This document shows, piece by piece, positions 1 to 58,810 of a stretch of 64,000 nucleotides of DNA. Under the pieces are notes generated by a model that was not told the origin of the DNA, searched no databases, and saw nothing but the letters and a program-made list of their open reading frames with translations. Position 1 is the stretch's first letter, and each line of letters begins with the position of its first letter. The translations under genes and the position numbers were made by a program. The stretch comes from Alphaproteobacteria bacterium. Its GTDB lineage: Bacteria > Pseudomonadota > Alphaproteobacteria > SP197. The stretch spans positions 1,982,235 through 2,046,234 of the forward strand of contig OZ251464.1 in NCBI GenBank assembly GCA_965242595.1. Direction: 5' to 3'.

Positions 1-3000
1 GATGGTGGTCGCCGCCCCCGACGGGCGCGACAGGGTAGCGCGGACAGTCGCCGCCCCGCCGCTCTCCGAGATCGCCGCCGGCGACAGCGCCAGCGTCACC
101 CCCGGCGCATCGTCGTTGTCGGTGGTGGTCACAGACACATCCACGTCGGCGATGCCGTTGTAGTCGGAGCCGCTGGCGCTGGAAGTATCCAGGCGCACAT
201 CCCAGGTGACGGTGCCGTCGTCGATATTGTCGTCCACCCCGGTCACCGTCACCACCTGATTGGTGTTCCAGTTGCCCGAACTCCCGGCCGTGAAGGTCAG
301 GGCGGAAGGCGATACCCGGCCCTCGCCGGCATCCTGGCTGGTCACCGTCACCGTCACCGCCTGCGAAGACATCGTGGCCTGGCCGGGATCCGTCGCCAGC
401 TTCACGGTGAAACTCGCCTGCCCGCGCCCCTCGCTCGCCTGGCCGGTCACCGTGCCCACATCCAGGCCCAGCTCGTCGTCGGCGTTGACGGCATAGATGA
501 ACACGTCGGAGAGCGCGTCGTAGAAGCTGTCGGCCGTGTCGGCCGTGTTCACCGCCAGCGTCACCCGGTAGTTCTGGCTGCCGTCGGCCGTGCCGGGCGA
601 GGGATCGTTCACCCCGGTCAGCGTCACCGTCTGCGCCGTCTGCCAGTCGCTGGAGGTGAAGGTCAGCGACGACGGCGACGCCGTGCCCTCGCCCGTGTTC
701 GAGCTGGTGACATCGATCACCACATTCGCGGTCGGCCCGGTGGCCAGGGTGATGTCCACCGTGGCCGTGCTGCCATCCTCCGAGGTTCGCAGCCGCGAAC
801 TGGTGCTGGTGGTCTCCGACATGACGATGGCCGCCTGGTCGTCGTCGCTGATGGTCAGGGACGCGCCGGTCACGCTGCCCACGCCGTGGCCGTTGGTCGC
901 CGCCGCCCCCACCGTCACCATGTTGTCTGTCGCATCCACCTGGTTGTTCACGGCCGTGATCGTCACCGTGCCGCTGGCGGTGGTGGCGCTGGCGGCGATC
1001 ACGATCCGCCCCGCCGCCCCCGCCGGCACCGTGAAGACCCCGCTCTGCGCCGTCACCGTCACCGTGGTCGGCTGGCTGGAAGGCCGCTCCAGAACCGCCG
1101 AGACCGCCGCCGCGCCGCCATTCTCGGTGATCGTGGCCGGCTGGACCGAAAGCGTCACCCCCGGCGCCGCATCGTCGTCCTCCAGCGTCAGCGTCGCCCC
1201 GGTCACGCTGCCCGCGCCCCGGTCGTTGGTCAGCGTCGCCGTCACCGTCGCCGTCCGGTTGGGTTCGTCGATATCGTTATCCACCGCCGTGATCGCCGCC
1301 GTGTCGCTGGCGGCGGCGGTGGCGAAGGCCGCGATCACGATGGTGGCGTCCGAACCCACCCGATAGGCCGCGCCCTGCGCCGCCATCACCGTCACCGTGG
1401 TCGCCACCGCCGAGGCCCGCGACAGGGTGGCGCTCACCGCCGACGTGCCACCGTTCTCGGAAATCGAGGCGGGAGAAAGCGCCAGCACCGCCCCCGGCGC
1501 CGCGTCGTCGTCGTTCAGCCTCAGCGTGGCGGCGGTGACGGCCATGGTGGTGGAATCGGCGCTGGCCCGGTCGTTCGTCACGATGGCCGTCACATTCGCC
1601 TGGCGACCGGGGCTGCCCTGGTGAACGTTGTCGTTCACCGCCGTGATCGTCACCGTCCCCGAGGCGTTCACCGTATCCCCAGCCGCGATCACGATCTGCC
1701 CCGCCGCCCCCGACGGCACCGTGAACGCCCCGGTCACGCCCGTCACCGTGATGGTGGTCGCCGCCCCCGACGGGCGCGACAGGGTGGCGCGCACCGTCGC
1801 CACCCCAGCGTTCTCCGAGATCGCCGCCGGCGTGAGCGCCAGCGTCACCCCCGGCGCCGCGTCATTGTCGGTGGTGGTTACAGGCACATCCACATTCGCC
1901 AGCGCGTTGTAGTTGGTATCGCCGCTGGCGGGGTCCAGCCGCACATTCCAGGTGACGGTGCCGTCGTCGATATTGTCGTCCTCCCCGGTCACCGTCACCG
2001 CCTGGGTCGTGCTCCAGTCGCCCGGCTGGAACGTCAGGGTGGAGGGCGAGACCCGGCCCTCGCTGGCATCCTGGCTGCTCACCGTCACCGTCACCGCCTG
2101 CGCCGGCTGGGTTCGCAGCCTCACGGTGAAGCTCGCCGTCCCACCCCCCTCGGTGGCCTGGCCGCTCACCGTGCCCGTCACCAGGCCGTATTCGTCGTCG
2201 TGGTTGACGGCATAGACGGTCGCGGTCGCAACCATGTCATAGGTGTCGTCGGCCGTGTTGGTCTGATCCACCTCCACCGTCACCTGGTAGTTCTGGCTGC
2301 CATCGGCAAGGGTATCGTCCTGGCCGGTCAGGGTCGCGGTCTGGGCCGTCTGCCAGTTGCTGGCCGTGAAGGTCAGCGACCCGGGCGAGACCGCCCCCTC
2401 GCTCGTGCCGGAGCCGGCCACGGCCAGGTCCAGCTCCACATCGCCGGTGGGCTGGCTGGTCAGCGCCACGGTGAAACTCGCCGTCCCGCCCCCCTCGTCG
2501 GTTTGCAGCCGCGCCGTGGTGGAGGGGGTGGGCGCCAGCGCCAGGCCGGCCGTGTCGTCGTCGGTGATGGTCACCTGCGGGTGGGCGGCGGCGTTCACCC
2601 GGTGGTCGTTGGTCTCCCCGATAAGCACGTACGGCGCGTTGGCCCCCGCGTCCACATCGTTGTCCAGCGCCGTGATCGTCACCCTGTCCGCGCTGGTGGT
2701 GGCGCCGGCCGCGATCACGATCCTCCCCCCCGCGCCCGTCGGCACCGTGAAGATGTTTTGCAGCCCCTGCACCGTCACCGTGGTCGCCGCGCTCGACTTG
2801 CCCGACAGCACCGCCGACGCCGTCGTCATCCCACCATTCTCGGAAATCGACGCAGACGACAGCGTCACCGTCACCGTCGGCGCCGCCTCGTCGTTCTCCA
2901 GCGTCAGCGTGACAGCGGTCGGGTTCGCCACATTGTTGCCGCCCGCCGCCGTGCCGGAGACCGTCACCTGCTTGTTGGGCGCATCCACATCGTTGTCGCT

Positions 3001-6000
3001 GGCCGTCACCGTCACATCCCCGCCGCTGACGGTGACACCGGCGGCGATGGTCAGCGTCCTGGCGGCGGAAAGGGCGAAGTCCGCCGCCACCGCGCCCGTT
3101 CCGGGCGCCGCCGCCACCGTCACCGTCACCGCTTCGCTGGAGGCGCCCGAAAGCGTGGCCGTCACCGACGCCACCCCGTTCGTCTCCGAGATCGACGCCG
3201 GCGACAGCGCCAGGGCCAGTGTCGGCAGCGCGTCGTCGTCGCTCAGCGTCAGCGTGACAGCGGTCGGGTTCGCCACCCCATTGCCGCCCACCACCGTGCC
3301 GGAGACCGTCACCGACTTGTCCGGCGCATCCACCATGTTGTCGTTGGCCGTCACCGTCACCGCGCCGGCGCTGGTGGTGCTGCCGGCGGCGATGGTCAGC
3401 GTCTTGGCGGTGGAAAGGTCGAAATCGGCCGCCGCCGCCCCCGTCCCAGGCGCCGCATCCACCGTCACCGTCACCGCTTCGCTGGAGGCGCCCGAAAGCG
3501 TGGCCGTCACCGTCGCCACCCCGCCGTTTTCCGAGACCGCGCTGGCCGACAGCGCCAGGGCCACGGTCGGCAGCGCGTCGTCGTCGGTGAGCGTCAGGGC
3601 GACATCCGACGGGTTCGAAAGCAGGCCGTGGCCGCCCGCCACACTGGCGGAGATCGTCACCTGCTTGTCCGGCGAGTCCACCATGTTGCCATTGGCCGTC
3701 ACCGTCACCACGCCGCTGCTGGTGGTGGCGCCGGCGGCGATGGTCAGCGTCTTGGCCATGGAGAGCGTGAAATCGGCCGCCGACGCGCCGGTCCCGGGCG
3801 CTGCCGCCACCGTCGCCACCACCGCCTCGTCCGATTTGCCCGAAAGCGTGGCCGTCACCGTCGCCACCCCGCCGCTCTCCGAGATCGCCGCCGGCGCGCG
3901 GGCCAGTGTCAGTGTCGGGGTGGGGTCGTCGTCGTTCTTGGTGACATCCACCGTCTCGTCGTCCAGGCCGTTGTACTTGCCGTCGCTACTGGCCGGGTCC
4001 AGGGTAATCTCCACCGCCAGACTCGCCGGATCGTCCCGGTCGTCGTCCACCGCCGTCACCCGCAGCGTCTGGGTGGCGTTCCAGTCGCTGGCGCTGAACA
4101 CCAGCGTCTTCGCGGTCGCGAAGGCTTGCGCATTGGCGTCGCCGGCCGCCCTGGCCAGCCGCACCTCGTCGCCATCGCCGCTGGTCGCCGTCACCGTCAC
4201 CGCCGCCGTCGGCTTGCTGGTCAGCCTCACCGTGAAGGTCTGCTCCGCTCCGCCCTCCGTCACCGTCAGCGTGCTCTCGGAGACCGTCAGCCCGGCCACA
4301 TCCACATCGGTGGTGCGCACCGTCTGCGGGCGCACGCTGGCCCCGCCAATCACATGATAGGCATCTGTGGGCTCATCCGGCGTGTCCGGGAACAGGCGCA
4401 GTGTGTAGTCGTCGTCGCCATCCACCACCTGGTCGCTCACGCCGTGCAGCGTCACGGTCTGCGCCGTCTCCCAGTTGCTGGCGGTGAAGGTCAGCCGCGT
4501 CGATGCCGCCGCCGTCCCGCCCCCCGCAGACACCAGCCCCTCATCCGACTCGTCGCTTTTCACCGCCACCGTGATGTTGGTGGTGGGCTGGCTGTTCAGC
4601 TTCACGGTGAAGGTCTCGCTGGCCCCTTCGGCCACGCTCAGCCACACCGGACAGGGCGCCCGGCGGCAGCGCGGAAAGGCCGGGGCCGTCACCAGGGCGG
4701 CGCGGTCGTCCTCCCAGATCCGCAGTTCCACATCGGCCGGGGCGGCGATGGTCAGCGTACTGCTGGGGGCGCCCTTCACCACCACCTTCTTGCGGGTCAC
4801 TGTGTCGTCCACGAGGGAGTCGATACGGTCGTCCACGGCCGTAATCGTCACCACGCCGGTGCTGGCGGTGGCGCCAGCCGCAATGATCAGCTTGGTGTTG
4901 GCGGAAAAGCTGAAATCGTCCGCCGCCGCGTTGGTTCCCGCCGTCGCCGAGACGGCGATCGTCACCGCCGCGCTGGCCGGGGTGCTCAGCCGCGCCGTCA
5001 CCGTGGTCATGCGCTCGGAACCCGGCGCCGTGGCCAGCTCCTTGATGGCGTCCGCCTCGCCCGAGATCGGGTCCGACAGCGCCAGCGTCAGCGTCGCCGT
5101 GTCGTCGTCCTCCAGCGTCAGCGTCAGCGACGATGGCGTCCCCACGTTGTTGCCGCCCGTCACCATGCCGGAGACCGTCACCGACTTGTCAGGCGAATGG
5201 ACGTTGTTGCCATTGGCGGTCACCGTCACCGTGCCGGCGCTGGCGGTGGCGCCGGCGGCGATGGTGAGCTTCGTGTTGCTGGAAAGGTCGAAATCGGCCG
5301 CCGCCGCGTTGGCCCCGGGCGCCGCCCCCACCGTCACCGTCACCGCCTCGCTCGACTTGCCCGAAAGCGTCGCCGTCACCGTCGCCACCCCGCTGCTCTC
5401 CGAGATCGACGAAGACGACAGCGCCAGCGTCACCGTCGGCAGGCTTTCGTCGTCGGTCAGCGTCAGGGTGAGATTGGACGGCGCCGCTATGTTGTTGCCG
5501 CCCACCGCGGTGCCGGAAATCGTCACCGACTTGGGCCCCGAATGGCGGTCGTTGCTATTGGCCGTCACCGTCACCGTGCCGGCGCTGGCGGTGGTGCCGG
5601 CGGCGATGGTCAGCGTCTTGGCGCTGGAAAGGTCGAAATCGGCCGCCACCGCCCCGGTTCCGGCCGCCGCCCCCACCGTCACCGTCACCCCTTCGCTCGA
5701 CTTGCCCGAAAGCGTCGCCGTCACCGTCGCCACCCCGCCGGTCTCCGAGATCGAGGAGGACGACAAGGCCAGCGTCACCGTCGGCAAGGTTTCGTCGTCG
5801 CTCAGCGTCAGGGTGACATCCGATGGCGCCACCACCCCGTTGCCGCCCGTCACCGTGCCGGAGACCGTCACCGACTTGTCCCCCGAATGGACGTCGTTGC
5901 CGCTGGCCGTCACCGTCACCGTGCCGGCGCTGGTGGTCTGCCCGACGGCGATGGTCAGCGTCTTGGCGGCGGAAAGGCCGAAATCCGCCGCCACCGCCCC

Positions 6001-9000
6001 GGTCCCAGCCACCGCCCCCACCGTCACCGTCACCGCCTCGCTCGACTTGCCCGAAAGCGTCGCCGTCACCGTCGCCTCGCCGCCCTGCTCCGAGATCGAG
6101 CTCTCCGACAGCGCCAGCGTCACGATGGGCAGGGTTTCGTCGTCGGTCAGCGTCAGGGTGAGATTGGAAGGCGCCACCACCCCGTTGCCGCCCGTCACCG
6201 TGCCGGAGACCGTCACCGACTTGTCAGGCGAGTCCACATCGTTGCCATTGGCCGTCACCGTCACCACGCCGGCGCTGGCGGTGCTGCCGGCGGCGATGGT
6301 CAGCGTGGTTCCCGTCTGGGCGAAGTCCGCCGCCACCGCCCCGGTCCCGGCCGCCGCCCCCACCGTCACCGTCACCGCTTCGCTGGAGGCGCCCGAAAGC
6401 GTGGCCGTCACCGACGACACCCCGCCGGTCTCCGAAATCGAGCTTTGCGACAGCGCCAGGGTCACCGTCGGCAGGGTTTCGTCGTCGGTCAGGGTCAGGG
6501 TCGCCGTGGTGACGGCCATGGTGGTGGAATCGGCGCTGGCCTGGTCGTTCGCCACCGTCGCCGTCACCGTCGCCTGGCGACCGGAGCTGCCCTGATGCAC
6601 GCTGTCGTTCACCGCCATGACGGTCACCGTGTCGCTGGCGGCGGTGGTGTCGCCGGCGTCGATCACGATCTGCCCCGCCGCCCCCGACGGCACCGTGAAG
6701 GCCCCGGAAACCGCCGTCACCGTCACCGTGGTGGCCGCGCTGGAGGGATGCGAGAGCGTCGCCGAGACCACCGAGCTGCCGCCGTTCTCGGCAATCGAGT
6801 CATCCGACAGCGCCAGCGTCACCCCCGGCGCCGCCTCGTCGTCGCTGATGGTCAGCGTGACGTCGTCCGGATCCGACGCGCCATCGCCGCCATCTACGGT
6901 GGCGGAGACCGTCACCTCCTTATCCGGCGCGTCGGCGGTGTTGTTCATCGCCGTCAATGTCACCACGCCGGTGCTGGTGGTGGCAGCGGCGGCGATGGTG
7001 AGCAGGGTTCCCGCCTGGGTGAAATCGGTCCCCGCCCCGGGCGAAGCCGAAACCGTGACGGTGGTCCCTTCGTTGGCCGCCTTGTCCAGCGTCGCCGTCA
7101 CCGTCGCCACCCCGCCGTCCTCCGAGATCGAGCTCTCCGACAGCGCCAGCGTCACCGCCGGCTTGTCGTCGTCTATGACCGTCACCGTCACCCCGATGGG
7201 GCGCTGCGCATGGGCCACGTTCCGCCCCACATCGCCGAGTCCGTAGTCGGCCACGACGTATCTGAGGCGCAGGGTGTTGTCCTCGTGGCCGGAGTCCGCG
7301 AGGGCATTCACGGTCACCGTCTGGGGCGTGTCCCAGGTCGTGGTCGTGAAGGTGTAGTTTTGCCCCCTCATGGGGGATAGTTGATTGTCGCCCCCCAGCG
7401 CGAGGCCGATGTCGGGGTAGAGGCCGACGCTGACCCACTGCGCCAGCCCAGGAGGCGGTTCGGTGTCCAGGACAAAGGTGAACGTCTTGCTGGCGCCCTC
7501 CTCGGTCAGGGTCATGGTGGTGGGGTTGAAGGTCACGCCTGCCGTGTCGTCGTCGGTCAGCGTCAGGTCCACCGTGGCTGGCGCCGCCACCCCATGGCCG
7601 CCCGCCATGGTGGCGGAGATCGTCACCTGCTTGTCGTTCGTATCCACCAAATTGCCATTGGCCGTCACCGTCACCGTGCCGGCGCTGGCGGTCTGCCCGG
7701 CCGCGATAGTCAGCGTCTTGGCGCTGGAGAGGGTGAAATCGCCCGCCACCGCCCCGGTCCCGGCCGCCGCCCCCACCGTCGCCACCACCGCCGCGCTCGA
7801 TTTGCCCGAAAGCGTCGCCGTCACCGTCGCCACCCCGCCAGTCTCCGAGATCGACGAGGACGACAGCGCCAGCGTCACGGTGGGCAGGGTTTCGTCGTCG
7901 CTCAGCGTCAGCGTGACATCCGACGGCGCCGCCACCCCGTTGCCGCCCGTCGCCGTGCCGGAGACCGTCACCGATTTGTCCGGCGCATCCACATCGTTGC
8001 CATTGGCCATCACCGTCACATCGCCGCTGCTGGCGGTGCTGCCAGCGGCGATGGTCAGCGTCGTGGCGGCGGAGAGGTCAAAGTCGCCCGCCACCGCCCC
8101 GGTCCCGGCCGCCGCCCCCACCGTCACCACCACCGCTTCGCTCGACTTGCCCGAAAGCGTCGCCGTCACCGACGAAACCCCGCCGGTCTCCGAAATCGAC
8201 GCCGGCGACAACGCCAGGGCCACCGTCGGCAGCGTGTCGTCTTCCGTAATGGTCAGGGTGACATTCGCCGGGTTCCCCACGCCGTGGCCGCCCGCCACCG
8301 TGCCGGAGACCGTCACCGACTTGTTCGCCGCGTGGACATCGTTGTCTTCGGCCGTCACCGTCACATCGCCGCTGCTGGCGGTGGCATTGGCGGCGATGGT
8401 GAGCGTGTTCTCCATGGAGAGCGTGAAGTCGTCCGCCCCCGCCCCGGCCCCGGCCGCCGCCCCCACCGTCACCACCACCTCCGCGCTCGATGCGCCCGAA
8501 AGCGTGGCCGTCACCGACGCCACCCCGCCGTTTTCCGCAATCGACGCCGGCGCCAGCGCCAGCGTCACCATGGGCGCCGTCTCGTCGTCGGTGAGCGTCA
8601 GCGCCGCGCCGGTCACGGCCATGGTCTCCGAGTTGGCGGCTGCCTGGTCGTTGGCCGCCGTGCCCGTCACCGTGGTGGCGCGCCCGGCGCCGTCAGCGCC
8701 GCCCTGATACACGCTGTCGTCCACCGCCGCCACGGTCGCCGTGTCGCCAGCGTTCACGGTATCGCCAGCGGCGATGACGATCACAGCGTCCGAACCCACC
8801 GTATAGGCCCCGTCCACCGCCGTCACCGTCACCGTGGTATCCGCGCTGGAGGGATGGGAGAGCGCCGCCGCTACCGTGGTCTCGCCGCCGTTCTCGCCGA
8901 TCGAGGCTGCCGACAGGCTCAGCGTCACACCCGGGGCATCGTCGTCGTCGGTCAGCGTCAATGCGACCCCGGTCGGGGCCGCCACGCCATTGCCGCCGCT

Positions 9001-11430
9001 GGCCGTGGCGGCAACCGTCACCTGCTTGTCGGGCGCATCGCCGTCGTTGTCCTCGGCCGTCAGCGTCACGCCGTCGCCGCCGCTGGCGGTGGCCCCGGCG
9101 GCGATGGTCAGCGTCCCCCCGCCGGAAAGGGTGAAATCGTCCGCCGCCGTCACCGTCACCACCACCGCCTCGCTGGAGGCGCCCGACAGCTTCGCCGTCA
9201 CCGTCGTCATCTCGCCATTTTCCGAAATCGAAGCCGACGACAGCGCCAGCGTCACGACCGGCAGCGCGTCGTCGTCGGTGAGCGTCAGCGTCACCGCCGC
9301 CGGCGCCCTCACATCGCCGCTCGCCTCCCCCGCAACCAGCATCCGCTTGTCCGGCGAGTCGATGCTGTTGCCCACCGCCGTAATCGTCACCGTGCCGGTG
9401 CTGGCGGTGGCCCCGCTGGCGAACACCAGCTCCGTCGTCGCCGACAGCGTGGCATCGCCCACCATGGCCCCCGCCCCGGGCGTCACCGTCACCGTAACGG
9501 TGGCCGCCCCGGCGGCCGCCTCGTCCAGCGTCGCCGTCACCGTCGTCACGCCGCCGGTCTCGGAGATGGTGGAGGACGACAGCGCCAGCGCCGCCTTGGG
9601 CACGGCGGTGATGGGGAGCCACTCGCCGTAGTAGTAATAAGTTGTTATGCCGTCGGGGAAGAGGCCGCCATGCGTGACGAGGACGACCACGCCGTCATTG
9701 TCGATCATCGCCTGGGTAAGACGGATCGTCCTGGACCCGCCGCTGCCGGTGGCCCGGCTGCAAATGGCGCCCTCGGTCGGCGCGGGGCCGCGATTTGAGG
9801 CGAGTCGCCTGACCGTCCTGTAAGCGCACGCCCAGACCCATCGATCCCCCAAGCTCCTCCCGGTAACGGTGATCGTTTGCGGGTCGGTCTTGCCCTTCAG
9901 CGACGCCGTGGTGACGTCATAGGTACCGAGCCCCGTTACCCAGCGCCTGTCGGTCCCGGTGGGCACGGTGCCGTCATTGTCGGTGACGGTCAGCGTCACG
10001 CTGGCCGGGTTCGCCACCCCGCCGCCGGCCGCGCTGCCCGACACCGTCACCTGCTTGGCGGCCCCGCGCATATCGTTGTTGACGCCCGTCACCGTCACCG
10101 TGCCGCTGCTGGCGGTCGCCCCGGCGGCGATGGTCAGCGTCCGCGTCAGAGACAATGTGAAGTCCCGCGCCGTCGCCCCGGTGCTGGGCGCCGCCGCCAC
10201 CGTCACCGTCACCGCCGCGCTGGAGGCGCCCGAAAGCCGCGCCGTCACCGTCGCCACCCCGCCGCCCTCCGAGATCGACGAGGGGGACAGCCCCAGCGTC
10301 ACCATCGGCGTGCCTTCGTCGTCGATCAGCGTCAGCGTGGTGGCTTCGGGCGCCCGGATGTCGCCAGCAACGCTGCCCGAAATCGTCACCTGCGCGTTGG
10401 GCGCGTCGGCGCTGTCGTCCATGGCGGTGATGGTGACTGTGCCGCTGCTGGCGGTGGCGCCGTTCGCGAACACCAGCCTCGTATTGCCAGAGAGCGTGAA
10501 ATCCGTGCCCGCGCCGGGGCTGGCCGCCACCGTGACGGTCGCCGCCCCGGAGGCCGGCTTGTCCAGCACCGCCGTCACCGTGGCCACCCCGCCATTTTCC
10601 CGGATCGACGAAGACGACAGGATCAGCGTCGCCTCCGGCAGCGAGACGATGGGCACCCATTCGGCGTAGAGATAGAAATGTCTGCCCGACGACTCCTCCA
10701 ACACCACAATGACCACGCCGTCATTGTCGATCATCGCCTGGGTCAGCGTGATCGAGTTGGGCGTGTTGTTGGTGGTAAGCTGGGTGCAGCCCGCGCCCGG
10801 TCCGGTGTTGGTGTAACCCTGGGTTGGCTGCGTGGCGTCTCTGGTGGCGCAGGCCCAGAAATCGACGAGGCGCTCCCTACCCCCTCGCGTCCTCACCGCC
10901 AGTGGCTGGGCGGTGGTCTTGGCCAGCAGCGGTGACGTGGTGATGTCCCAGTCGTTGGCTGTAGGGGCGCCGTTTCGCCACGTGGTCGCGGTGACCGACG
11001 GCTCGTTGTCGGCGATGGTCAGCGTCACGTCGGCCGGGCCGGTCAGGCTGCCGCCGCCGCCCGCGGCGCTGCCCGCCACCCTCACCATCTTGTCGGGCGC
11101 GTCGATGTCGTTGTTGACCGCCGTAATCGTCACCGTGCCGGCGCTGGCGGTGGTGTTGGCGGCGATGGTGAGCGTGGTGCCCGTCAGCGTGTAATCCGCC
11201 GCCCGGGCGCCGCTGGAGGCGACCGGCGCCACGCTGACCGTCACCGTCACCGCCGCGCTGTTCGGCGTGTTCAGACTGGCCGTCACCGAGGCCACCCCGC
11301 CACCCTCCGATATCGAAGCCGGCGACAGGCGCAAGCTCACACTCTGCGCCCAGGCCGGCGCCGCGGCGGCAAGCGCCAGCGCAGCCAGCAGGACGGCGAA
11401 ACCCACGCGGGAAGCGCGACAACCCCTCAC
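1..11430 (-). CDS. Giant Calx-beta-like repeat adhesin, paralog 2. This is the 5' partial, about 3800 codons; the gene continues past the window start.
   Basis: Reverse translation of 1..132 gives VTTTDNDDAPGVTLALSPAAISESGGAATVRATLSRPSGAATTI, the same repeat type as the large ORF. The frame stays open from the window edge up to a GTG at 11428-11430 that follows an in-frame TAG. The N-terminus reads VRGCRASRVGFAVLLAALALAAAAPAWA/QS, a signal peptide with an AWA cleavage motif. A GGGGGA Shine-Dalgarno-like motif sits ~5 nt upstream. It is absent from the ORF track because no stop lies within the window. Confidence 0.8.
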   Translation of the reverse strand, partial: MRGCRASRVGFAVLLAALALAAAAPAWAQSVSLRLSPASISEGGGVASVTASLNTPNSAAVTVTVSVAPVASSGARAADYTLTGTTLTIAANTTASAGTVTITAVNNDIDAPDKMVRVAGSAAGGGGSLTGPADVTLTIADNEPSVTATTWRNGAPTANDWDITTSPLLAKTTAQPLAVRTRGGRERLVDFWACATRDATQPTQGYTNTGPGAGCTQLTTNNTPNSITLTQAMIDNDGVVIVVLEESSGRHFYLYAEWVPIVSLPEATLILSSSSIRENGGVATVTAVLDKPASGAATVTVAASPGAGTDFTLSGNTRLVFANGATASSGTVTITAMDDSADAPNAQVTISGSVAGDIRAPEATTLTLIDDEGTPMVTLGLSPSSISEGGGVATVTARLSGASSAAVTVTVAAAPSTGATARDFTLSLTRTLTIAAGATASSGTVTVTGVNNDMRGAAKQVTVSGSAAGGGVANPASVTLTVTDNDGTVPTGTDRRWVTGLGTYDVTTASLKGKTDPQTITVTGRSLGDRWVWACAYRTVRRLASNRGPAPTEGAICSRATGSGGSRTIRLTQAMIDNDGVVVLVTHGGLFPDGITTYYYYGEWLPITAVPKAALALSSSTISETGGVTTVTATLDEAAAGAATVTVTVTPGAGAMVGDATLSATTELVFASGATASTGTVTITAVGNSIDSPDKRMLVAGEASGDVRAPAAVTLTLTDDDALPVVTLALSSASISENGEMTTVTAKLSGASSEAVVVTVTAADDFTLSGGGTLTIAAGATASGGDGVTLTAEDNDGDAPDKQVTVAATASGGNGVAAPTGVALTLTDDDDAPGVTLSLSAASIGENGGETTVAAALSHPSSADTTVTVTAVDGAYTVGSDAVIVIAAGDTVNAGDTATVAAVDDSVYQGGADGAGRATTVTGTAANDQAAANSETMAVTGAALTLTDDETAPMVTLALAPASIAENGGVASVTATLSGASSAEVVVTVGAAAGAGAGADDFTLSMENTLTIAANATASSGDVTVTAEDNDVHAANKSVTVSGTVAGGHGVGNPANVTLTITEDDTLPTVALALSPASISETGGVSSVTATLSGKSSEAVVVTVGAAAGTGAVAGDFDLSAATTLTIAAGSTASSGDVTVMANGNDVDAPDKSVTVSGTATGGNGVAAPSDVTLTLSDDETLPTVTLALSSSSISETGGVATVTATLSGKSSAAVVATVGAAAGTGAVAGDFTLSSAKTLTIAAGQTASAGTVTVTANGNLVDTNDKQVTISATMAGGHGVAAPATVDLTLTDDDTAGVTFNPTTMTLTEEGASKTFTFVLDTEPPPGLAQWVSVGLYPDIGLALGGDNQLSPMRGQNYTFTTTTWDTPQTVTVNALADSGHEDNTLRLRYVVADYGLGDVGRNVAHAQRPIGVTVTVIDDDKPAVTLALSESSISEDGGVATVTATLDKAANEGTTVTVSASPGAGTDFTQAGTLLTIAAAATTSTGVVTLTAMNNTADAPDKEVTVSATVDGGDGASDPDDVTLTISDDEAAPGVTLALSDDSIAENGGSSVVSATLSHPSSAATTVTVTAVSGAFTVPSGAAGQIVIDAGDTTAASDTVTVMAVNDSVHQGSSGRQATVTATVANDQASADSTTMAVTTATLTLTDDETLPTVTLALSQSSISETGGVSSVTATLSGASSEAVTVTVGAAAGTGAVAADFAQTGTTLTIAAGSTASAGVVTVTANGNDVDSPDKSVTVSGTVTGGNGVVAPSNLTLTLTDDETLPIVTLALSESSISEQGGEATVTATLSGKSSEAVTVTVGAVAGTGAVAADFGLSAAKTLTIAVGQTTSAGTVTVTASGNDVHSGDKSVTVSGTVTGGNGVVAPSDVTLTLSDDETLPTVTLALSSSSISETGGVATVTATLSGKSSEGVTVTVGAAAGTGAVAADFDLSSAKTLTIAAGTTASAGTVTVTANSNDRHSGPKSVTISGTAVGGNNIAAPSNLTLTLTDDESLPTVTLALSSSSISESSGVATVTATLSGKSSEAVTVTVGAAPGANAAAADFDLSSNTKLTIAAGATASAGTVTVTANGNNVHSPDKSVTVSGMVTGGNNVGTPSSLTLTLEDDDTATLTLALSDPISGEADAIKELATAPGSERMTTVTARLSTPASAAVTIAVSATAGTNAAADDFSFSANTKLIIAAGATASTGVVTITAVDDRIDSLVDDTVTRKKVVVKGAPSSTLTIAAPADVELRIWEDDRAALVTAPAFPRCRRAPCPVWLSVAEGASETFTVKLNSQPTTNITVAVKSDESDEGLVSAGGGTAAASTRLTFTASNWETAQTVTLHGVSDQVVDGDDDYTLRLFPDTPDEPTDAYHVIGGASVRPQTVRTTDVDVAGLTVSESTLTVTEGGAEQTFTVRLTSKPTAAVTVTATSGDGDEVRLARAAGDANAQAFATAKTLVFSASDWNATQTLRVTAVDDDRDDPASLAVEITLDPASSDGKYNGLDDETVDVTKNDDDPTPTLTLARAPAAISESGGVATVTATLSGKSDEAVVATVAAAPGTGASAADFTLSMAKTLTIAAGATTSSGVVTVTANGNMVDSPDKQVTISASVAGGHGLLSNPSDVALTLTDDDALPTVALALSASAVSENGGVATVTATLSGASSEAVTVTVDAAPGTGAAAADFDLSTAKTLTIAAGSTTSAGAVTVTANDNMVDAPDKSVTVSGTVVGGNGVANPTAVTLTLSDDDALPTLALALSPASISETNGVASVTATLSGASSEAVTVTVAAAPGTGAVAADFALSAARTLTIAAGVTVSGGDVTVTASDNDVDAPNKQVTVSGTAAGGNNVANPTAVTLTLENDEAAPTVTVTLSSASISENGGMTTASAVLSGKSSAATTVTVQGLQNIFTVPTGAGGRIVIAAGATTSADRVTITALDNDVDAGANAPYVLIGETNDHRVNAAAHPQVTITDDDTAGLALAPTPSTTARLQTDEGGGTASFTVALTSQPTGDVELDLAVAGSGTSEGAVSPGSLTFTASNWQTAQTATLTGQDDTLADGSQNYQVTVEVDQTNTADDTYDMVATATVYAVNHDDEYGLVTGTVSGQATEGGGTASFTVRLRTQPAQAVTVTVSSQDASEGRVSPSTLTFQPGDWSTTQAVTVTGEDDNIDDGTVTWNVRLDPASGDTNYNALANVDVPVTTTDNDAAPGVTLALTPAAISENAGVATVRATLSRPSGAATTITVTGVTGAFTVPSGAAGQIVIAAGDTVNASGTVTITAVNDNVHQGSPGRQANVTAIVTNDRASADSTTMAVTAATLRLNDDDAAPGAVLALSPASISENGGTSAVSATLSRASAVATTVTVMAAQGAAYRVGSDATIVIAAFATAAASDTAAITAVDNDIDEPNRTATVTATLTNDRGAGSVTGATLTLEDDDAAPGVTLSVQPATITENGGAAAVSAVLERPSSQPTTVTVTAQSGVFTVPAGAAGRIVIAASATTASGTVTITAVNNQVDATDNMVTVGAAATNGHGVGSVTGASLTISDDDQAAIVMSETTSTSSRLRTSEDGSTATVDITLATGPTANVVIDVTSSNTGEGTASPSSLTFTSSDWQTAQTVTLTGVNDPSPGTADGSQNYRVTLAVNTADTADSFYDALSDVFIYAVNADDELGLDVGTVTGQASEGRGQASFTVKLATDPGQATMSSQAVTVTVTSQDAGEGRVSPSALTFTAGSSGNWNTNQVVTVTGVDDNIDDGTVTWDVRLDTSSASGSDYNGIADVDVSVTTTDNDDAPGVTLALSPAAISESGGAATVRATLSRPSGAATTI
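260..4900. repeat. Multi-kb block of gene 2 homologous (roughly 85-95% nt) and largely collinear with gene 1 segment 20150..26500
   Basis: Antisense ORFs are near-identical at a constant offset of 19,897 bp: 1397..1624 vs 21294..21521, 1628..1912 vs 21525..21809, and 1913..2215 vs 21810..22112. The offset shifts by ~1.7 kb further on (4475 vs 26100). Confidence 0.7.
9620..9965 (-). other. Insert module copy in gene 2 (second)
   Basis: Verified reverse translations: VTLTVTDNDGTVPTGTDRRWVTGLGTYDVTTAS... and ...GSRTIRLTQAMIDNDGVVVLVTHGGLFPDGITTYYYGEWLPITAV. Confidence 0.55.
10640..10975 (-). other. Insert module copy in gene 2 (N-proximal)
   Basis: Verified reverse translations: VTLTIADNEPSVTATTWRNGAPTANDWDITTSP... 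and ...QAMIDNDGVVIVVLEESSGRHFYLYAEWVP. Confidence 0.55.
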
Positions 11431-11482
11431 TCGGTCCCCCTCGACAGGCGAGCGCAGCTATCTGGCAAGCCCCCATCAAGAA

Positions 11483-14208: not shown

Positions 14209-14415
14209 TTAGACGGTGGCCGGTTCGGGCAGCGCCCCATCCTCATTGCGGACGATCTCCAGCCACTCGTCCACGATCCGGCACAGCTCGCGATACACCG
14301 CCACTTCGTCGTCGCCATGACAGCACGGGCCGATGACCCCGGGACAGGAACCGACAAAACACCGGTCCTCGTCCGACCATGCGACTCGCTTGATGTATTT
14401 CGCGCTGTCCTTCAT
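14209..14415 (-). CDS. hicB: HicB-family antitoxin, short form without a DNA-binding domain (68 aa)
   Basis: Reads MKDSAKYIKRVAWSDEDRCFVGSCPGVIGPCCHGDDEVAVYRELCRIVDEWLEIVRNEDGALPEP, matching the HicB-like antitoxin pattern (Y..v.WseEDg.yva..P.lpGc...GdT.eEA.......I.ewLE). It has a 4-nt ATGA overlap with hicA and a GAGGAG SD inside the hicA 3' end. Confidence 0.75.
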   Translation of the reverse strand: MKDSAKYIKRVAWSDEDRCFVGSCPGVIGPCCHGDDEVAVYRELCRIVDEWLEIVRNEDGALPEPATV

Positions 14416-14606
14416 GTCTGCGACTCCTCTATCCTTCGCCGCACCTCTCGTTCCTGGTAGGGCTTGGCATCGCCACCCAGGCTTCCGGAAATCGTCACAC
14501 GCTGCCCGTTCGGGTGGCGATAATTTCTGTGGCTGCCCTTGCCGCCGCGCGAAACGAACCCCGCCCGCTCCAGGTCTCTCACCAACGCTGCGACTTTACG
14601 CGGCAT
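14412..14606 (-). CDS. hicA: HicA-family mRNA interferase toxin (64 aa)
   Basis: Reads MPRKVAALVRDLERAGFVSRGGKGSHRNYRHPNGQRVTISGSLGGDAKPYQEREVRRRI. It has the G-KGSH-x-y-HP signature of HicA/YcfA-like proteins and sits directly upstream of hicB with overlap. Confidence 0.8.
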   Translation of the reverse strand: MPRKVAALVRDLERAGFVSRGGKGSHRNYRHPNGQRVTISGSLGGDAKPYQEREVRRRIEESQT

Positions 14607-14626
14607 GGTGTCGAGGCCGACATGGC

Positions 14627-14758
14627 CAACATTCTATCGCAACCGGGGCGCCATGGTCACAGGCGCTGCCGGGAGGGTGTCGGGCAGGTGTCACGGGCGT
14701 GTCGTGGGCGTGTTGCAGGGCGGCCGCGGCAGACAGCGCGGGGTGGCGGGGGCCGGGT
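14627..14758. repeat. Intergenic element R, copy 2, immediately upstream (minus sense) of hicA
   Basis: Four GTGTC/GTGTT repeats at 14677, 14688, 14699 and 14710 with exact 11-bp phasing. A TTGCGATAGAAT (-10-like TAGAAT) lies 25 nt before the hicA ATG on minus. Confidence 0.7.
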
Positions 14759-14762
14759 GGAA

Positions 14763-15044
14763 TTATCCCGAAGCTCGTTGAACTTCAGCCGCCCCGCCAT
14801 GCCGTGGCCCGCGCTGCCCAACCATCCCGGAGCACGCCAGGCCCGCGGTCGGTTCGGGCAGCGCCCCATCCTCATCGCGGAGGATCTCCAGCCACTCGTC
14901 CACGATCCGGCACAACTCCCGATACACCGCCACTTCGTCGTCGCCGTGACAGCACGGGCCGATGACGCCGGGGCAGGAACCGACGAAGCACCGATCCTCG
15001 TCCGACCACGCGACTCGCTTGATGTATTTCGCGCTGTCCTTCAT
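14763..15044 (-). CDS. Second, orphan HicB-like copy (hicB') with a 26-aa C-terminal extension and no hicA partner
   Basis: MKDSAKYIKRVAWSDEDRCFVGSCPGVIGPCCHGDDEVAVYRELCRIVDEWLEILRDEDGALPEPTAGL... is ~93% nt identical to hicB over ~250 bp. It has an intact ATG (15044) and a GAGGAG SD. The ORF track extends it to 15083 through the tandem repeat. Confidence 0.5.
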   Translation of the reverse strand: MKDSAKYIKRVAWSDEDRCFVGSCPGVIGPCCHGDDEVAVYRELCRIVDEWLEILRDEDGALPEPTAGLACSGMVGQRGPRHGGAAEVQRASG

Positions 15045-15057
15045 GTCCGCGACTCCT

Positions 15058-15130
15058 CTATCCTCCGCCGCGCCGCTCTCCATCCCTCGCCGCGCCGCTC
15101 TCTATCCTTCATCCTTCGCCGCGCCGCTCA
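15058..15130. repeat. Imperfect 22-bp tandem triplication replacing hicA upstream of hicB'
   Basis: Units are ctatcctccgccgcgccgctctc / catccctcgccgcgccgctctc / tatccttcatccttcgccgcgccgctcattcc. They correspond to the 3' end of hicA (RRRIEE codons and the hicB SD) present once at 14416..14440. Confidence 0.7.
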
Positions 15131-15150: not shown

Positions 15151-15245
15151 CTATCGCAACCGGGCCACCACCACAATAGGCGCTATCGGGAGGGTGCCGC
15201 AAGGGTGTCGTGAACATGTTGCGCGGCCGCCGCCCGACACCCGCC
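15151..15245. repeat. Intergenic element R, copy 3, partial and diverged. It lies between the giant gene 1 stop and hicB'.
   Basis: Starts ctatcgcaaccgg like copies 1 and 2. It retains three 11-bp-phased GTG(C/T)C repeats at 15194, 15205 and 15216. Confidence 0.55.
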
Positions 15246-15286
15246 CGACACCCCTGCGGCACCCACCCGACAGGCGGCGCGGGCGC

Positions 15287-18200
15287 CTACCAGGCCAGGC
15301 GCAGTTCCAGGGCCAGGCCGTGTTCGGGATCGGCGACGCCCTCGTTGCGGCTGGCCTCGATGGCGAGGCTCAGCACGCTGCCCAGCCCCCACCGCTGGCC
15401 CAGGCTGTAGCGGCGCTCGCCCCGGCCCAGGGCCATGGCGCCATAGGGGGTCGCGGTGGCGACGCCGCCCCAGGCGGGCAGGCCATAGCCCAGCTCGCTC
15501 TCCAGCCGGGCGCCCCGGCCGACGCTGGCGCCGTTCTCGTCGCCGCCCGCCATGCCGTCCTGCCACAGGCGCGTCAGGCCGCTATCGGCCACGCCCCAGG
15601 CGGGGGCGAGCTGGAACGACAGGCCGCGCCCGTCGCCGTCGGGGTTCAGGTGGAAGGCGCCAGACGCGCCCCATTCCTCCAGATCGCTGCGATGGGCCAG
15701 CAGGGCCCGCCCGCCCAGTTCGGCCCCCAGGCCGCCGCCGGAATCGCTCAGCGCGATGCTGCCGCCCAGCTCCACGCCCATGCCGCTGGCGCCATCGCCA
15801 CCGTCCCAGCGCAGCCCCGCCTCCAGGGACGGCGCCAGCGACCAGCCGCCATCCAGCGACCAGCTGCGGCTTCCCGCCGCCGCCAGCCGGGCGCGCTGGG
15901 TGGCCACGGTCAGGGCGGCGATCACCTCGCCATTGTCGTCCAGGGCATAGCGGGTGGCCTCCACCGACGCCTTCAGGTCCAGCGCCAGCCCGTCGGCGGC
16001 CAGCAGCGGCAGCGCCCCGCCCATGGCGGCGGCCAGCATGGAACTGTCGCCCGCCTGCCAGCCATAGCGCTCGCGGATGGCGCTATCGGTCATGCGCAGA
16101 TCGCCGCGCCCATAGCCCAGGGCCGCCCACAACCGGCTGCCGTCGGCGCCGGCCCAGCCCAGATAGGGATGGACGGCCGACATGGCGCTCTCGTGGTCGC
16201 CCCGGATGGCGCCCTCGTCGCCATCGCTGCGGTCGCTATAGGCGATGGCGCTCTCGAAGCGCGAGAGCGCCAGCCCGGCGGTGAAGCCGTCGCCCAGCAC
16301 CGCATCGGCGCCGAGATGGGCCGCGAACAGCCTGCCCGACCAGTCCAGCGCCGCCTGCTTGCGTTCCAGATCGCGCCAGTCGCCGGCGCCCCACAGCACC
16401 AGCGAGGAGGCGCCGCCATCGTCGTCATCGCCGCCACTCAGGGCCAGGGTGAAGCCTTCGCCGCCCAGCAGCTCCTTCCACGAGCTGCCGCCGTCCTCCA
16501 GCGCCTCGCCCTTGGAGCGCAGGAAGCCCGCCGCCGCGTCCAGGCCCTGCGCCGCCAGCCCACCGCCGCCACCGGCCGGGCCTTCCAGGCGGGAGGAGAT
16601 GGCGTCCAGCGCGCTGCCCCACATGGCCCGCGACAGCTCCGGCAGAATGGAGCGGTTGATGGCCTTCAGCCGCGCCCGCGCCAGGTCCAGATTGGCCACC
16701 ACCTCGACGGTGAAGACCAGCTCCGCCCGCTGGCCGTCGATATCGGTCGCCGTCCAGCTGTAGCTGCGCAGCTCGAACGCCGCGCCCGGCGTCCCCGACA
16801 GGCGGCGCCCGGCGCGGGCGATGCCGTCCGGCAGCGTCTCCGGCGCCAACGCATATTGCAGCTGCCCGTCGCCGCCGCTCGCCAGCGGCAGGTCCAGCGG
16901 CGCGATGGCCTCGTCCACCGTCCAGGTCAGCGCCTGCGGGAAGTCGGCCTCGGCGAAGGACGGGCGCGTGTCCTCATAGCCGACCGCAAAGGGCGAGAAT
17001 GTCGTCACCCCGGGCGCGCACACCCGCATCCGCTCCGCCTCCCAGGACGACCCCGCCACCGGTTCCCAGGCGCTGCCGTCATGATGCAGCAGCACGGGTT
17101 CGCGCCCCGCCGCCGCCGCCAGCAGAGCCTCGCTTACCGGCAGGCAGATATGCAGCCCCGCCGCCAGCGCCCCCGCGACCTGGATATCCACCGCCGACTG
17201 CGCCGCGCCGTCCCGCCCCAGGGCGAAGCCCGACCCATCCACCACCGGCAGCGCCCGGTCCGAAAGCGGCCTGAAGCTCATCTCCACCATGCGTCCGCCG
17301 ATGCTGAACACCGCCTCCGCCTCCCGCAACGGCGCCAGGATGCGGCTGTCCTCTTCCACCGGAGCGGAGAGCGCCGCCTGCACCCCGTCATAATCGCCGC
17401 CGGAGGCGCTGTGGGTCAGCAGCGCCGCGTCGGCATAGTCGTCCTCGTCCCCCCGCGCCGTCACCGTCACCGTCTGCGCCTGGTTCCAGTCCGCCGCCGT
17501 GAAGGTCAGGCCGGTGGGCGCGGGCGTCACATCCGGGTTGTCGCTCGCCACCGCCAGCGTCACCGGCCCGGTGGGCTCGCTGGTCAGCGCCACCGTGTAG
17601 TCGGCCCCCGGCCCGTCCGCCGTGGTCGCCACCGCCGCCGGCGCGAAGGCCAGCCCCCTGCTGTCGTCGTCGGCGACGGTCAGGGTGGCGGCGGCGACGG
17701 CCACGCTTTCGCCGGCGGCGCTGGCCAGGGCGTTGGCGGCCGCGCCCGTCACCCGCACCGATATGTCCGGCGCATCCACGGCGTTGTCGTTGGCCGTCAC
17801 CGTCACCTGGCCGCTGCTGGCGGTAGCAAAGGCGGCAAAGGTCAGCGTCGTTCCCGCCTGGGTGAAATCGCCCGCCACCGCGCCCGCCACCGGCGCCGCC
17901 TGAACCGTCACCGTGGTCGCCGCCGCCGAGGGATGGGACAGCAGCGCCGTCACCCGCGTCACGCCGCCGTTCTCGGAGATGGTGGCCGGGTTCAGCACCA
18001 GCGTCACCGCCGGCGCCGCGTCGTCGTCGCTCGTGGTCACATCCACATGCTCGACCAGGCCGTCATAGATGGCATCGCCGCTCGCCGTCCGCAGCCGCAC
18101 CTGCCATGCGACATCGCCATCGTCGATGGCGTCGTCCACCCCGGTCACCGTCACCCTCTGGGCCCGGTTCCAGTTCCCGGCGCCGAACACCAGCGCGGCC

Positions 18201-57066: not shown

Positions 57067-57142
57067 TGGTGAGCCCGCAGGGACTCGAACCCTGGACCCT
57101 CTGATTAAAAGTCAGATGCTCTACCAGCTGAGCTACAGGCTC
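57067..57142 (-). tRNA. tRNA-Lys (anticodon UUU), 76 nt with encoded CCA
   Basis: Minus-strand sequence is GAGCCTGTAGCTCAGCTGGTAGAGCATCTGACTTTTAATCAGAGGGTCCAGGGTTCGAGTCCCTGCGGGCTCACCA. The 7-bp acceptor stem is GAGCCTG/CGGGCTC and the anticodon loop is CTTTTAA. The T-loop is TTCGAGT. Confidence 0.9.
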
Positions 57143-57409: not shown

Positions 57410-58810
57410 TCAGGACGAACCGTCGCCACCCTTCGGAAAGCCGTCGCCGTCATGCCGGTCGCCGGTCAGTTCCGGGGCCTGGAGCGCGCGGGCTTCCAGT
57501 TCGATCGGCGTGATTTCGTCAACCATGCTGCCCTTCGGCGCCGCGCCCAGCCTCTCGAATCTCCGCGCAGTCGGCAGAACGCGGCCCTCGAGCGAACCGA
57601 CGCTCATGTTGTAGCGATCGACCGCTTGACGAAGAGCTTTGCCGAGATTGCCCATGCGCCCACCGAAAAATTTGATCCGTTCGAACAATTCGCGGGCAAG
57701 GTCGAACACGGCCTGGGTGTTCTCCGCCAGCTTGTGCTGCTGCCATCCATAAGCGATCGCCTTCACCAGGGCGATGAAGCTCATCGGGGTGGCGATCAGA
57801 ACGCGGTTCGAGACCGCCTGCTCGAACAACTCCGGATCGCGTTCGACGGCCGCCGAATAAAACGGCTCGCCGGGAATGAACATCACGACAAAGTCGGGCG
57901 TGACCGACAGCGCCTGCCAGTATTCCTTCGACGCAAGATCGCGCACATGGTTGCGGACATGATGAACATGGTTCGCCATGTGCTGGGCGCGTTCCTCCTC
58001 GTCGCTGGCCTCCACCGCGGCGAGATACCCCTCCAGAGGCGTTTTCGCATCGACGACGATGGATTTATCACCGGGCAGGCGGATGATGGCATCGGGCCGC
58101 AGACGGCGCTCCTCGCCGACGGTCGCTTGCGTCACGAAATCCACATGCTCGCTCATGCCCGCCATTTCGAGGACGTTCTTCAGCTGATATTCGCCCCAGC
58201 GCCCGCGCGTCTGCGGCTGCCGGAGCGCCTGCACCAGCCGATTCGTCTCCGTCTTCAAACGCAACTGCCCCTCGCTAAGGGTTTTAACCTGCTCCGTGAC
58301 GGCGCTATAGGCCCCTTCCCGCGCCTTTTCGATCTCGCCGACCTTTTGCTCGAACTTGTCCAGGCTCTCGCCGATCGGCTTGACCAGCGTCTCGATCGCC
58401 TGCTGCCTCCTGGCCAGATCCTCGTCGGAACTGGCCTTGTGCTTTTCGAACCGCTCCGTCACCCGATCCAGGAAATTTCTGCTGTTCTTTTCAAGCGCCT
58501 CGGCGGCCAGCAGCGCGAATTTTCGCTCGATCTCGGCAGCCATGCCCTTCAGCTCCTCGACGCGAGCCTCATGGTTCTGCCGTTCCGTCTTCAAACTGGT
58601 CTCGGCGATAGCCTTCTCCCCCAACAGCCGCTCGCGCTCGGACCGCTCGCGCTCCACAGTCTCCGCCGCACTCGCCTCCGCCGCATTCGCCCGCTCCTCA
58701 GCAGCGGCAGTCCTGGAGCGTTCCGGGCGAACGAAGGCCAGCCAAGCGGCGATACCCCCAAGGCCGAACCCGATCACCGCCATCAAAACATCGCCCATCT
58801 CGAACGTCAT
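57410..58810 (-). CDS. rmuC: DNA recombination protein RmuC
   Basis: 466 aa with an N-terminal TM segment and a coiled-coil region. The conserved RmuC block is LRQPQTRGRWGEYQLKNVLEMAGM...VDFVTQ...RPDAIIRLPGDKSIVVDAK. Confidence 0.8.
   Translation of the reverse strand: MTFEMGDVLMAVIGFGLGGIAAWLAFVRPERSRTAAAEERANAAEASAAETVERERSERERLLGEKAIAETSLKTERQNHEARVEELKGMAAEIERKFALLAAEALEKNSRNFLDRVTERFEKHKASSDEDLARRQQAIETLVKPIGESLDKFEQKVGEIEKAREGAYSAVTEQVKTLSEGQLRLKTETNRLVQALRQPQTRGRWGEYQLKNVLEMAGMSEHVDFVTQATVGEERRLRPDAIIRLPGDKSIVVDAKTPLEGYLAAVEASDEEERAQHMANHVHHVRNHVRDLASKEYWQALSVTPDFVVMFIPGEPFYSAAVERDPELFEQAVSNRVLIATPMSFIALVKAIAYGWQQHKLAENTQAVFDLARELFERIKFFGGRMGNLGKALRQAVDRYNMSVGSLEGRVLPTARRFERLGAAPKGSMVDEITPIELEARALQAPELTGDRHDGDGFPKGGDGSS

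Follow-up and report, generated by a model that had tools for sequence, protein, structure and literature searches.

Two similarity islands and their probable origin by gene conversion in a pair of giant Calx-beta-repeat genes

When two very large repeat-protein genes lie close together and resemble each other, does the resemblance reflect one duplicated block or pieces exchanged between old paralogs? The question is raised by a 64,000-bp stretch from an Alphaproteobacteria bacterium (assembly GCA_965242595.1, contig OZ251464.1, positions 1,982,235–2,046,234), referred to in the following as the window, which has a GC content of 71% and carries two giant genes on its minus strand, gene 1 and gene 2 (Table 1). 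The initial annotation described a multi-kb collinear block of high similarity between positions 260–4900 in gene 2 and 20150–26500 in gene 1. Such a block was borne out only in part; in place of a continuous stretch, we found two separate islands, referred to as island A and island B. Exchange between the paralogs by gene conversion probably explains these islands, and shorter conversions the mosaic patches that interrupt them; the difference in unit number between the islands would stem from unequal recombination.

Two islands of similarity in the repeat arrays

Judged by their sequences, both genes encode arrays of ~115-aa Calx-beta/LapA-like units. Tandem Repeats Finder gave a repeat period of 345 bp, or 115 aa. 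Four small hidden Markov models (HMMs), built from gene 2 units and representing types A (canonical), B, C and D, were used to parse the arrays, yielding 30 units in gene 2, plus odd inserts, and 94 units in gene 1. From the N- to the C-terminus, the order in gene 2 is ...A'-C'-D' / A-A-A-B / C-D-B-B / B-C-D-B..., and that in gene 1 is ...A'-C'-D' / A-B-B-C-D-A-A-B-C / C-D-B-B / A-A-B-A-A-B-A-A-D-A-C, followed by a C-terminal domain.

Island A comprises the C-D-B-B cassette. BLASTN, 300-bp window scans and global alignment showed it to be 87.0% identical between the two genes over 1,410 columns, with per-unit values of 0.83, 0.92, 0.84 and 0.92 for 22C, 23D, 24B and 25B, respectively. It consisted of tracts at 92–98% identity, broken by short divergent patches, and was the highest of 6,561 four-unit collinear diagonals (0.875; the next independent diagonal scored 0.80). 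The constant offset of 19,897 bp reported in the initial annotation held for positions 1386–2560; across 1151–1325 the offset was 19,900, with a 3-bp indel between the two. Three antisense open reading frame (ORF) spans had been described as nearly identical to their counterparts. The spans were 96.5%, 80.0% and 92.1% identical without gaps, but the description was too strong: the islands as wholes reached 87.0% and 81.3%, and the longest exact tract common to the two genes was 75 bp.

Island B, with atypical A'-C'-D' units, was 81.3% identical over 988 columns at an offset of 21,622–21,649. Its core, placed by alignment at 4319–4731, was 92.3% identical, and the proportion of synonymous differences (pS) between the genes in the core was about 0.12 (interval 0.058–0.188). 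The other parts of the proposed block fell away. Positions 260–1150 were 48% identical at the claimed offset and had their best partners elsewhere (24035–24561, 76–83%), out of order, while positions 2561–4149 showed generic repeat similarity only, with best matches at 46–52 kb. Similarity did resume after an indel, as had been noted (~1.7 kb, five to six units): the offset shift between the islands was 1,725 bp, or exactly five 345-bp units, with four units in gene 2 and nine in gene 1. Within island B lies an 18-aa linker, RAALVTAPAFPRCRRAPC (4651–4704 in gene 2; 26273–26326 in gene 1), which is 100% identical in the two genes and nearly so in a related locus, L002, described below (~6520). 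It holds a rare Cys pair; the rest of the protein is Cys-poor.

Table 1. Positions of the giant genes, the similarity islands and the patches within them, in window coordinates.
Feature	Position	Strand	Description
Gene 2 (partial)	1–11457	minus	Open frame, N-terminus at ~11,4xx at the right end; still open at the left window edge; at least 3,819 aa
Gene 1	15287–56146	minus	Single intact ORF, 13,619 aa
Island A, gene 2	1151–2560	minus	Four whole units 22C, 23D, 24B, 25B; unit boundaries 1171–2553
Island A partner, gene 1	21051–22457	minus	Units 79C, 80D, 81B, 82B
Island B, gene 2	4150–5110	minus	Atypical A'-C'-D' units: 15A, 16C, part of 17D
Island B partner, gene 1	25781–26759	minus	Units 67A, 68C, part of 69D
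Island B core, putative conversion tract	4298–4702; partner ~25920–26324	minus	Cys-containing linker and C' unit; maximal segment of gene 1=gene 2 sites
Inter-island units, gene 2	2554–3924	minus	Four units, A-A-A-B
Inter-island units, gene 1	22451–25564	minus	Nine units, A-B-B-C-D-A-A-B-C
58-bp patch, gene 2	1327–1384	minus	58/58 identical to gene 1 23003–23060 (unit 77B)
Gene 1 match of the 58-bp patch (alternative donor or recipient)	23003–23060	minus	Gene 1 unit 77B; 58/58 match
Patch in N-terminal third of gene 2 unit 24B	1732–1860	minus	Unlike gene 1 81B; ~92% identical to gene 2 1–111 (29B)

The island units stood well above the repeat background, in agreement with the initial annotation. 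The median nucleotide identity of all 7,377 unit pairs was 0.59 and the 99th percentile was 0.78; the top three pairs, 16C/68C, 25B/82B and 23D/80D, were all island pairs (0.915–0.917). The accompanying claim that repeats within each gene are much more diverged held against this ranking, but not everywhere. Tandem A-type units of gene 2 share 80–86% identity, and one pair within gene 1, g1_83A/g1_86A, reached 0.904. The latter pair belongs to a higher-order tandem duplication, AAB-AAB, at 19043–21070, in which the units are 90%, 83% and 74% identical. A similar duplication is found in gene 2 at 6478–8940, where B-A-A-A units 5–8 match units 10–13 with a mean identity of 0.80.

The island units also ranked near the bottom in synonymous divergence, with pS values of 0.100, 0.119, 0.154 and 0.188 in a set of 2,610 same-type pairs whose median was 0.367, and island A as a whole had a pS of 0.188 [0.153–0.226]. 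Identity at four-fold sites was 0.93–0.96 in the island units, against a median of 0.66, although this measure alone discriminates poorly, as chance identity is already 0.54 at the third-position GC content (GC3) of the giant genes. Two landmarks outside the islands were used for comparison. A single-copy domain, domain X (gene 2 aa 496–617; gene 1 aa 1725–1848), was 57–61% identical at the aa level with a pS of 0.27, and an N-terminal collinear stretch had a pS of 0.274 [0.216–0.327]; together, the landmarks were 57–63% identical in aa sequence. Synonymous divergence was thus lower in the islands (0.10–0.19) than in the landmarks (0.27), a moderate effect that is compressed by the GC3 bias. 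Since the islands have low pS and the landmarks are more diverged, genes 1 and 2 appear to be old paralogs with younger islands.

Three-way comparison and mosaic patches

A third sequence was provided by L002, a locus of an Alphaproteobacteria metagenome-assembled genome (MAG; OZ251539.1) that carries a giant ORF with a tail of the same kind as that of gene 1. L002 is collinear with gene 1 over ~15 kb: L002 2–10144 matched window positions 32764–22688 at 74.3% identity, and L002 13774–18677 matched 20408–15463 at 72%. The nearest relatives of most gene 1 units from 52 to 93 were L002 units, in collinear order. Units 68C and 79C–82B, and also 73C, 74D, 78C and 85B, were closer to gene 2 units than to L002.

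In island B, the grouping of the three sequences changed from unit to unit. In the A' unit, gene 1 and L002 were 93.0% identical (pS 0.150), whereas gene 2 was 78.9% identical to gene 1 and 78.7% to L002. In the core, consisting of the linker and the C' unit, gene 2 and gene 1 formed the closest pair at 92.8% (pS 0.115), compared to 86.3% for gene 1 and L002 (pS 0.253) and 85.1% for gene 2 and L002 (pS 0.325). In the D' unit, the closest pair was again gene 1 and L002, as in A' (73.2%, against 68.8% for gene 2–gene 1 and 67.7% for gene 2–L002). At informative sites, gene 1 agreed with L002 at 66 and with gene 2 at 11 positions in A', while the corresponding counts in the core were 16 and 42; the two patterns differed with p = 7e-12 by Fisher's exact test. 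The best-scoring segment in which gene 1 and gene 2 agreed was 4298–4702. This switch in grouping is what exchange between genes 1 and 2 would leave if it took place once the L002 lineage had split off.

Island A behaved likewise. The gene 1 units of the island were nearer to gene 2 (0.83–0.92) than to any L002 unit (0.72–0.80), and a neighbor-joining tree of C-D di-domains placed the island A copies of genes 1 and 2 as sisters, whereas the other cassettes of the window paired with L002 copies.

Several of the divergent patches in island A matched other units of the arrays. The 58-bp patch of gene 2 (Table 1) differs from its collinear partner, unit 82B, at ~15 positions and a 3-bp indel, and is identical to unit 77B over its whole length. 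For the patch in unit 24B, the gene 1 counterpart of 1732–1860 resembles gene 2 6714–6799 and gene 1 25102–25163. Painting by nearest sequence showed more donor switches at ~2204–2250 and ~2492–2540. These patches would be best explained by short conversion tracts, copied among units of the same gene and from one gene to the other.

Elevated identity, low synonymous divergence, a switch in grouping and patches with alternative donors were thus demonstrated in this locus. Because the island units are among the lowest in pS, because the grouping relative to L002 switches and because alternative donors match the patches, past gene conversion is supported. The course of events would have been as follows. 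Genes 1 and 2 would be old paralogs whose products belong to a family of autotransporter-like giant surface proteins with Calx-beta repeats. Following their divergence, and after the split from the L002 lineage, at least two segments would have been exchanged by non-reciprocal homologous recombination: the four-domain C-D-B-B cassette of island A (~1.4 kb) and a ~400-bp tract over the unique linker and the C' domain, the core of island B. Later conversions of ~60–130 bp from other units, within or between the genes, would have overwritten parts of island A, giving the mosaic, and the five-unit difference between the islands would be due to unit gain or loss by unequal recombination. A RecA-type mechanism of conversion is inferred for these events, as are their direction and any role in surface variation.

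Weighing the explanations

Several observations weigh against gene conversion as the source of the islands, or limit what it explains. Island divergence is still substantial (13% overall, with exact tracts of at most 75 bp), so that the exchange events must be old or followed by heavy divergence. The extreme GC3 of the giant genes, 96–98% at four-fold sites, compresses pS, and the pS interval of island A (0.153–0.226) almost touches that of the landmark (0.216–0.327). L002 was taken as the ortholog of gene 1 from collinearity only. The identity between the two is very uneven (73–93%), so that cross-lineage exchange could account for part of the incongruence.

These points also bear on timing. 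The initial annotation proposed recent duplication or ongoing gene conversion, of which the exchange is supported by low pS, the L002 switch and the mosaic donors; "recent" was an overstatement for segments with a pS of 0.10–0.19 and tracts that are 3.5–8% diverged. In absolute terms, the exchange cannot be called recent on the sequence, and ongoing activity is unproven. Nor is the block the ready substrate for recombination that had been envisaged. Overall divergence is ~13%, the best tracts are 3.5–8% diverged and no identical tract exceeds 75 bp, which makes the islands a mediocre substrate for RecA-type crossover today. Should a crossover occur in island A, it would delete 19.9 kb and fuse the N-terminal 11,000 aa of gene 1 to the tail of gene 2.

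Among other explanations, we considered segmental (partial) duplication, in which copies of parts of one gene would have entered the other as added sequence, as would be the case had gene 2 been put together from gene 1 modules. The edges of similarity in island A (~1151/2545) coincide with unit boundaries (1171/2553), the number of units between the islands differs by five, and both genes contain higher-order duplications (AAB-AAB and BAAA-BAAA), all as such insertions would have it. In island B, however, the core is flanked by A' and D' in the same order in both genes and in L002, and these flanks are at paralog-level divergence. Since the core sits between A' and D' units that were already in place, it appears to have been replaced in situ, that is, by conversion, and we consider segmental duplication an unlikely origin of the islands.

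The islands might also have arisen with no exchange at all, as specialised domains that diverged more slowly under stronger purifying selection after one ancient duplication of the whole gene. The C-D-B-B cassette and the island B module are kept at 60–66% aa identity in homologous giant genes from other MAGs, where their distance from the barrel is similar, and all three sequences compared here, gene 1, gene 2 and L002, are 84–90% identical in aa sequence in the island B core. The ratio of nonsynonymous to synonymous differences (pN/pS) is 0.52–0.55 in the islands, lower than the background of ~0.83, as this explanation would predict. What makes it improbable is that the synonymous sites of the islands are likewise the most similar, and that the divergent patches match third units exactly. 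Slow evolution also fits poorly with the A' unit, which is better kept between gene 1 and L002 (93%) yet only 79% identical between the paralogs, the grouping flipping within 400 bp.

A further possibility is an exchange that crossed lineages, with A' (93% identical, against an average of ~74%) swapped between gene 1 and the L002 lineage, rather than the core between gene 1 and gene 2. The wide span of gene 1–L002 identity over the units, from 69% to 93%, agrees with this, as does the occurrence of the family at 60–65% aa identity in MAGs labelled Gammaproteobacteria, Alphaproteobacteria and Nitrospirales, all at ~70% GC regardless of the flanks. We regard it as improbable, as it leaves unexplained the lowest pS of the island pairs, the whole of island A and the patches with donors within the window.

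An artefact of assembly, consensus or polishing, with mis-recruited repeat reads leading to chimeric patches or a false duplicate, is very improbable: such long repeat arrays are difficult to assemble and short exact patches (58 bp) resemble mis-polishing, but the copies are 8–19% diverged rather than at the ~100% identity expected of a collapse or of the chimera that the initial annotation named as a refutation, the frames are open over 40.9 kb (gene 1) and 11.5 kb (gene 2), the codon-level pattern of pN < pS is biological and sharing between paralogs recurs in independent MAG assemblies.

Protein class, gene family and genomic setting

The assignment of the units was based on Pfam, in which gene 2 matched both Calx-beta (E=2.9e-36) and LapA (E=3.7e-26). 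For the Calx-beta/LapA models (PF03160/PF20579), the Pfam cut-off of 27 bits was applied to the whole protein or to long segments, with scores of 124.5 bits for gene 2, above the gathering threshold, and 330.8, 338.4 and 156.5 bits for segments of gene 1, which likewise exceed it; single units in isolation stayed below the threshold. Gene 1 additionally has He_PIG and fn3 domains. Hydrophobic N-terminal segments are present in both proteins, and that of gene 2 is signal-like. The plus-strand "antisense ORFs" were rejected as genes: it is the minus-strand frame that holds the Pfam domains and shows pN < pS, and the ORFs arise as by-products of the 71% GC content. A ~120-aa Cys-containing insert domain that is not of the Calx-beta type ('...WACAYRTV...LTQAMIDNDGVV...') occurs at 9607–9972 and 10645–11001 in gene 2 and at 50624–50995 in gene 1. 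The best gene 2/gene 1 pair of this domain is 57% identical in aa sequence, and the other copies are 37–39% identical.

The last 467–537 aa of gene 1 had no match in Pfam, including PF03797, or in NCBIfam, and no sequence match in the PDB; BLASTP against P0090, an autotransporter-bearing island A homolog, gave no significant match either. The C-terminus was therefore classified from the profiles of its homologs and a structure model. Seventy homologs were found, and 25 of the 45 that were aligned, at 33–62% identity, matched Pfam Autotransporter (PF03797). The AlphaFold2 (AF2) model of the region (15290–16690) had a predicted local distance difference test (pLDDT) score of 80.5 and a predicted template modelling (pTM) score of 0.74, and consisted of a long helix (2–36) followed by ~19 beta strands. 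Foldseek matched the model to the barrels of BrkA (TM 0.61, target-normalised), EspP and Hbp, and also to LptD and TonB-dependent barrels, all with low TM-scores. Gene 1 is thus predicted to end in an outer-membrane beta-barrel, which in the model looks larger than the classical 12-strand type. The modelled C-terminal helix and outer-membrane barrel recall the type Va autotransporters EspP, BrkA and Hbp, and there is family-level homology to PF03797. Gene 1 differs from them in having ~19 modelled strands instead of 12, in that its own sequence matches neither Pfam nor NCBIfam, and in its passenger, which is a 13,000-aa Calx-beta array and not a beta-helix. The protein is best described as an autotransporter-like giant surface protein; strict membership of type Va is unproven.

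When species-representative genomes were scanned with the island A protein, 13 loci were matched, all of them in MAGs. The best matches were 60–63% identical in aa sequence and came from records titled Gammaproteobacteria, Alphaproteobacteria and Nitrospirales. No strain-level relative of island A was found in a set of 5.8 billion proteins, in which the best match was ~60–70% identical; an exact 32-mer from the 75-bp common tract had no match in Joint Genome Institute (JGI) metagenomes, and an exact-protein look-up of the flanking RmuC-like gene returned no identical protein on record. The homologous giant genes in MAGs of other phyla have a GC content of 70–73%, with flanks that are mostly lower, at 59–68%; locus L005 is an exception, with flanks that also have ~71–74% GC. 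The high GC content of the homologs, whatever their flanks, is compatible with horizontal gene transfer or with GC-biased gene conversion in repeat arrays. Two of these MAGs each carry a pair of distant paralogs with long collinear stretches in common: in a Gammaproteobacteria MAG, L001 12839–17369 and L006 9458–13979 share 4.5 kb at 92.3%, and in a Nitrospirales MAG, L003 1–18528 and L004 1–18528 share at least 18.5 kb at 95.8%. Homogenised or duplicated paralogs are a trait of the family. In the homologous loci, the C-D-B-B cassette occurs several times per gene, a few kb upstream of the C-terminal domain.

One could go further and regard the islands as the trace of family-wide cassette shuffling, in which giant genes are shared horizontally among unrelated host-associated bacteria, each genome retaining at least two paralogs whose membrane-proximal cassettes are exchanged time and again, thereby diversifying the cell surface; we put this forward as speculation that is more likely wrong than right by a wide measure. 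GC-biased conversion could then be the driver of the extreme GC3. If the host were a sponge, the Calx-beta arrays could engage the Calx-beta-based aggregation factor of the host. The only pointers to a sponge host are the ankyrin-repeat gene next door and the Calx-beta enrichment reported in sponge symbiont MAGs (PMC9531527).

The ankyrin-repeat gene lies at 61112–64000 on the plus strand and leaves the window at its right edge (at least 962 aa; Ank_2, E=2.5e-131). Within this gene there is a repeat of ~912 bp, with an exact 53-bp match between 61256 and 62168. Eukaryote-like repeat proteins of this sort are typical of host-associated symbionts. A tRNA-Lys(TTT) is found at 57067–57142 on the minus strand, between the gene 1 start and the RmuC-like gene (57410–58810). 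The giant genes have a GC content of 70–73%, compared to 58–68% in the neighboring genes, and a GC3 at four-fold sites of 96–98%, compared to 64–88%; these sites are biased towards G (G 59–67%, C 29–36%). Together, the tRNA-Lys and the step in GC content may point to the edge of a genomic island. Just 3' of the gene 1 stop there is a tandem duplication (14218–15078; 629-bp spacing, 232 nt at 93%), which doubles a small minus-strand ORF (14763–15083 and its twin). A 45-nt inverted repeat directly after the gene 1 stop codon (15183–15273) may be a terminator.

Among known systems, the ligA, ligB and ligC genes of Leptospira also encode paralogous surface proteins of Ig-like beta-sandwich domains, with one block that is far more similar than the rest and mosaicism by recombination. 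LigA and LigB have a near-identical N-terminal part in common. In the present genes, the similarity is confined to internal islands of 0.4–1.4 kb at 87–93%, not a long near-identical terminus; the units are Calx-beta/LapA-like instead of Big_2, the proteins are 5–10 times larger, and the organism is an uncultured high-GC bacterium. The mosaic nature of the lig genes has been described (PMC10534446). Giant Ca2+-dependent adhesins such as LapA, SiiE and the MpIBP/BAP-type RTX proteins, with concerted evolution of their tandem repeats, resemble the proteins of genes 1 and 2 in their long arrays of ~100-aa beta-sandwich units, in the homogenisation of neighboring units (80–86% in gene 2) and in variable unit number. 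Adhesins of the LapA/SiiE/MpIBP type are exported by type 1 secretion and carry RTX signals at the C-terminus, whereas gene 1 ends in a helix and a predicted outer-membrane barrel, and its homologs match Pfam Autotransporter. In the pilE/pilS, vlsE and msp2 cassette systems, short-tract, non-reciprocal conversion likewise produces mosaic surface proteins. The genes described here differ in having no layout of expression site and silent cassettes, both being long ORFs with their own N-termini; their tracts are old, with none identical over more than 75 bp, and show no sign of programming.

Patchy exchange is the ordinary biology of repetitive bacterial surface-protein genes, and mosaic, recombining genes of this type are well known, so that no new mechanism is implied. 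For this uncultured and probably host-associated bacterium, the result is a hint, and only a hint, at diversification of its surface. As a clean example of patchy gene conversion in a pair of very large repeat-protein paralogs, the locus carries its own controls. For annotation and assembly, it shows that 40-kb genes of this kind can be resolved, and that exchange can be told from constraint once the units are compared one by one with those of a related genome. It is also a warning that what looks like a similarity "block" in such genes is a mosaic of domain cassettes and not a simple duplication.

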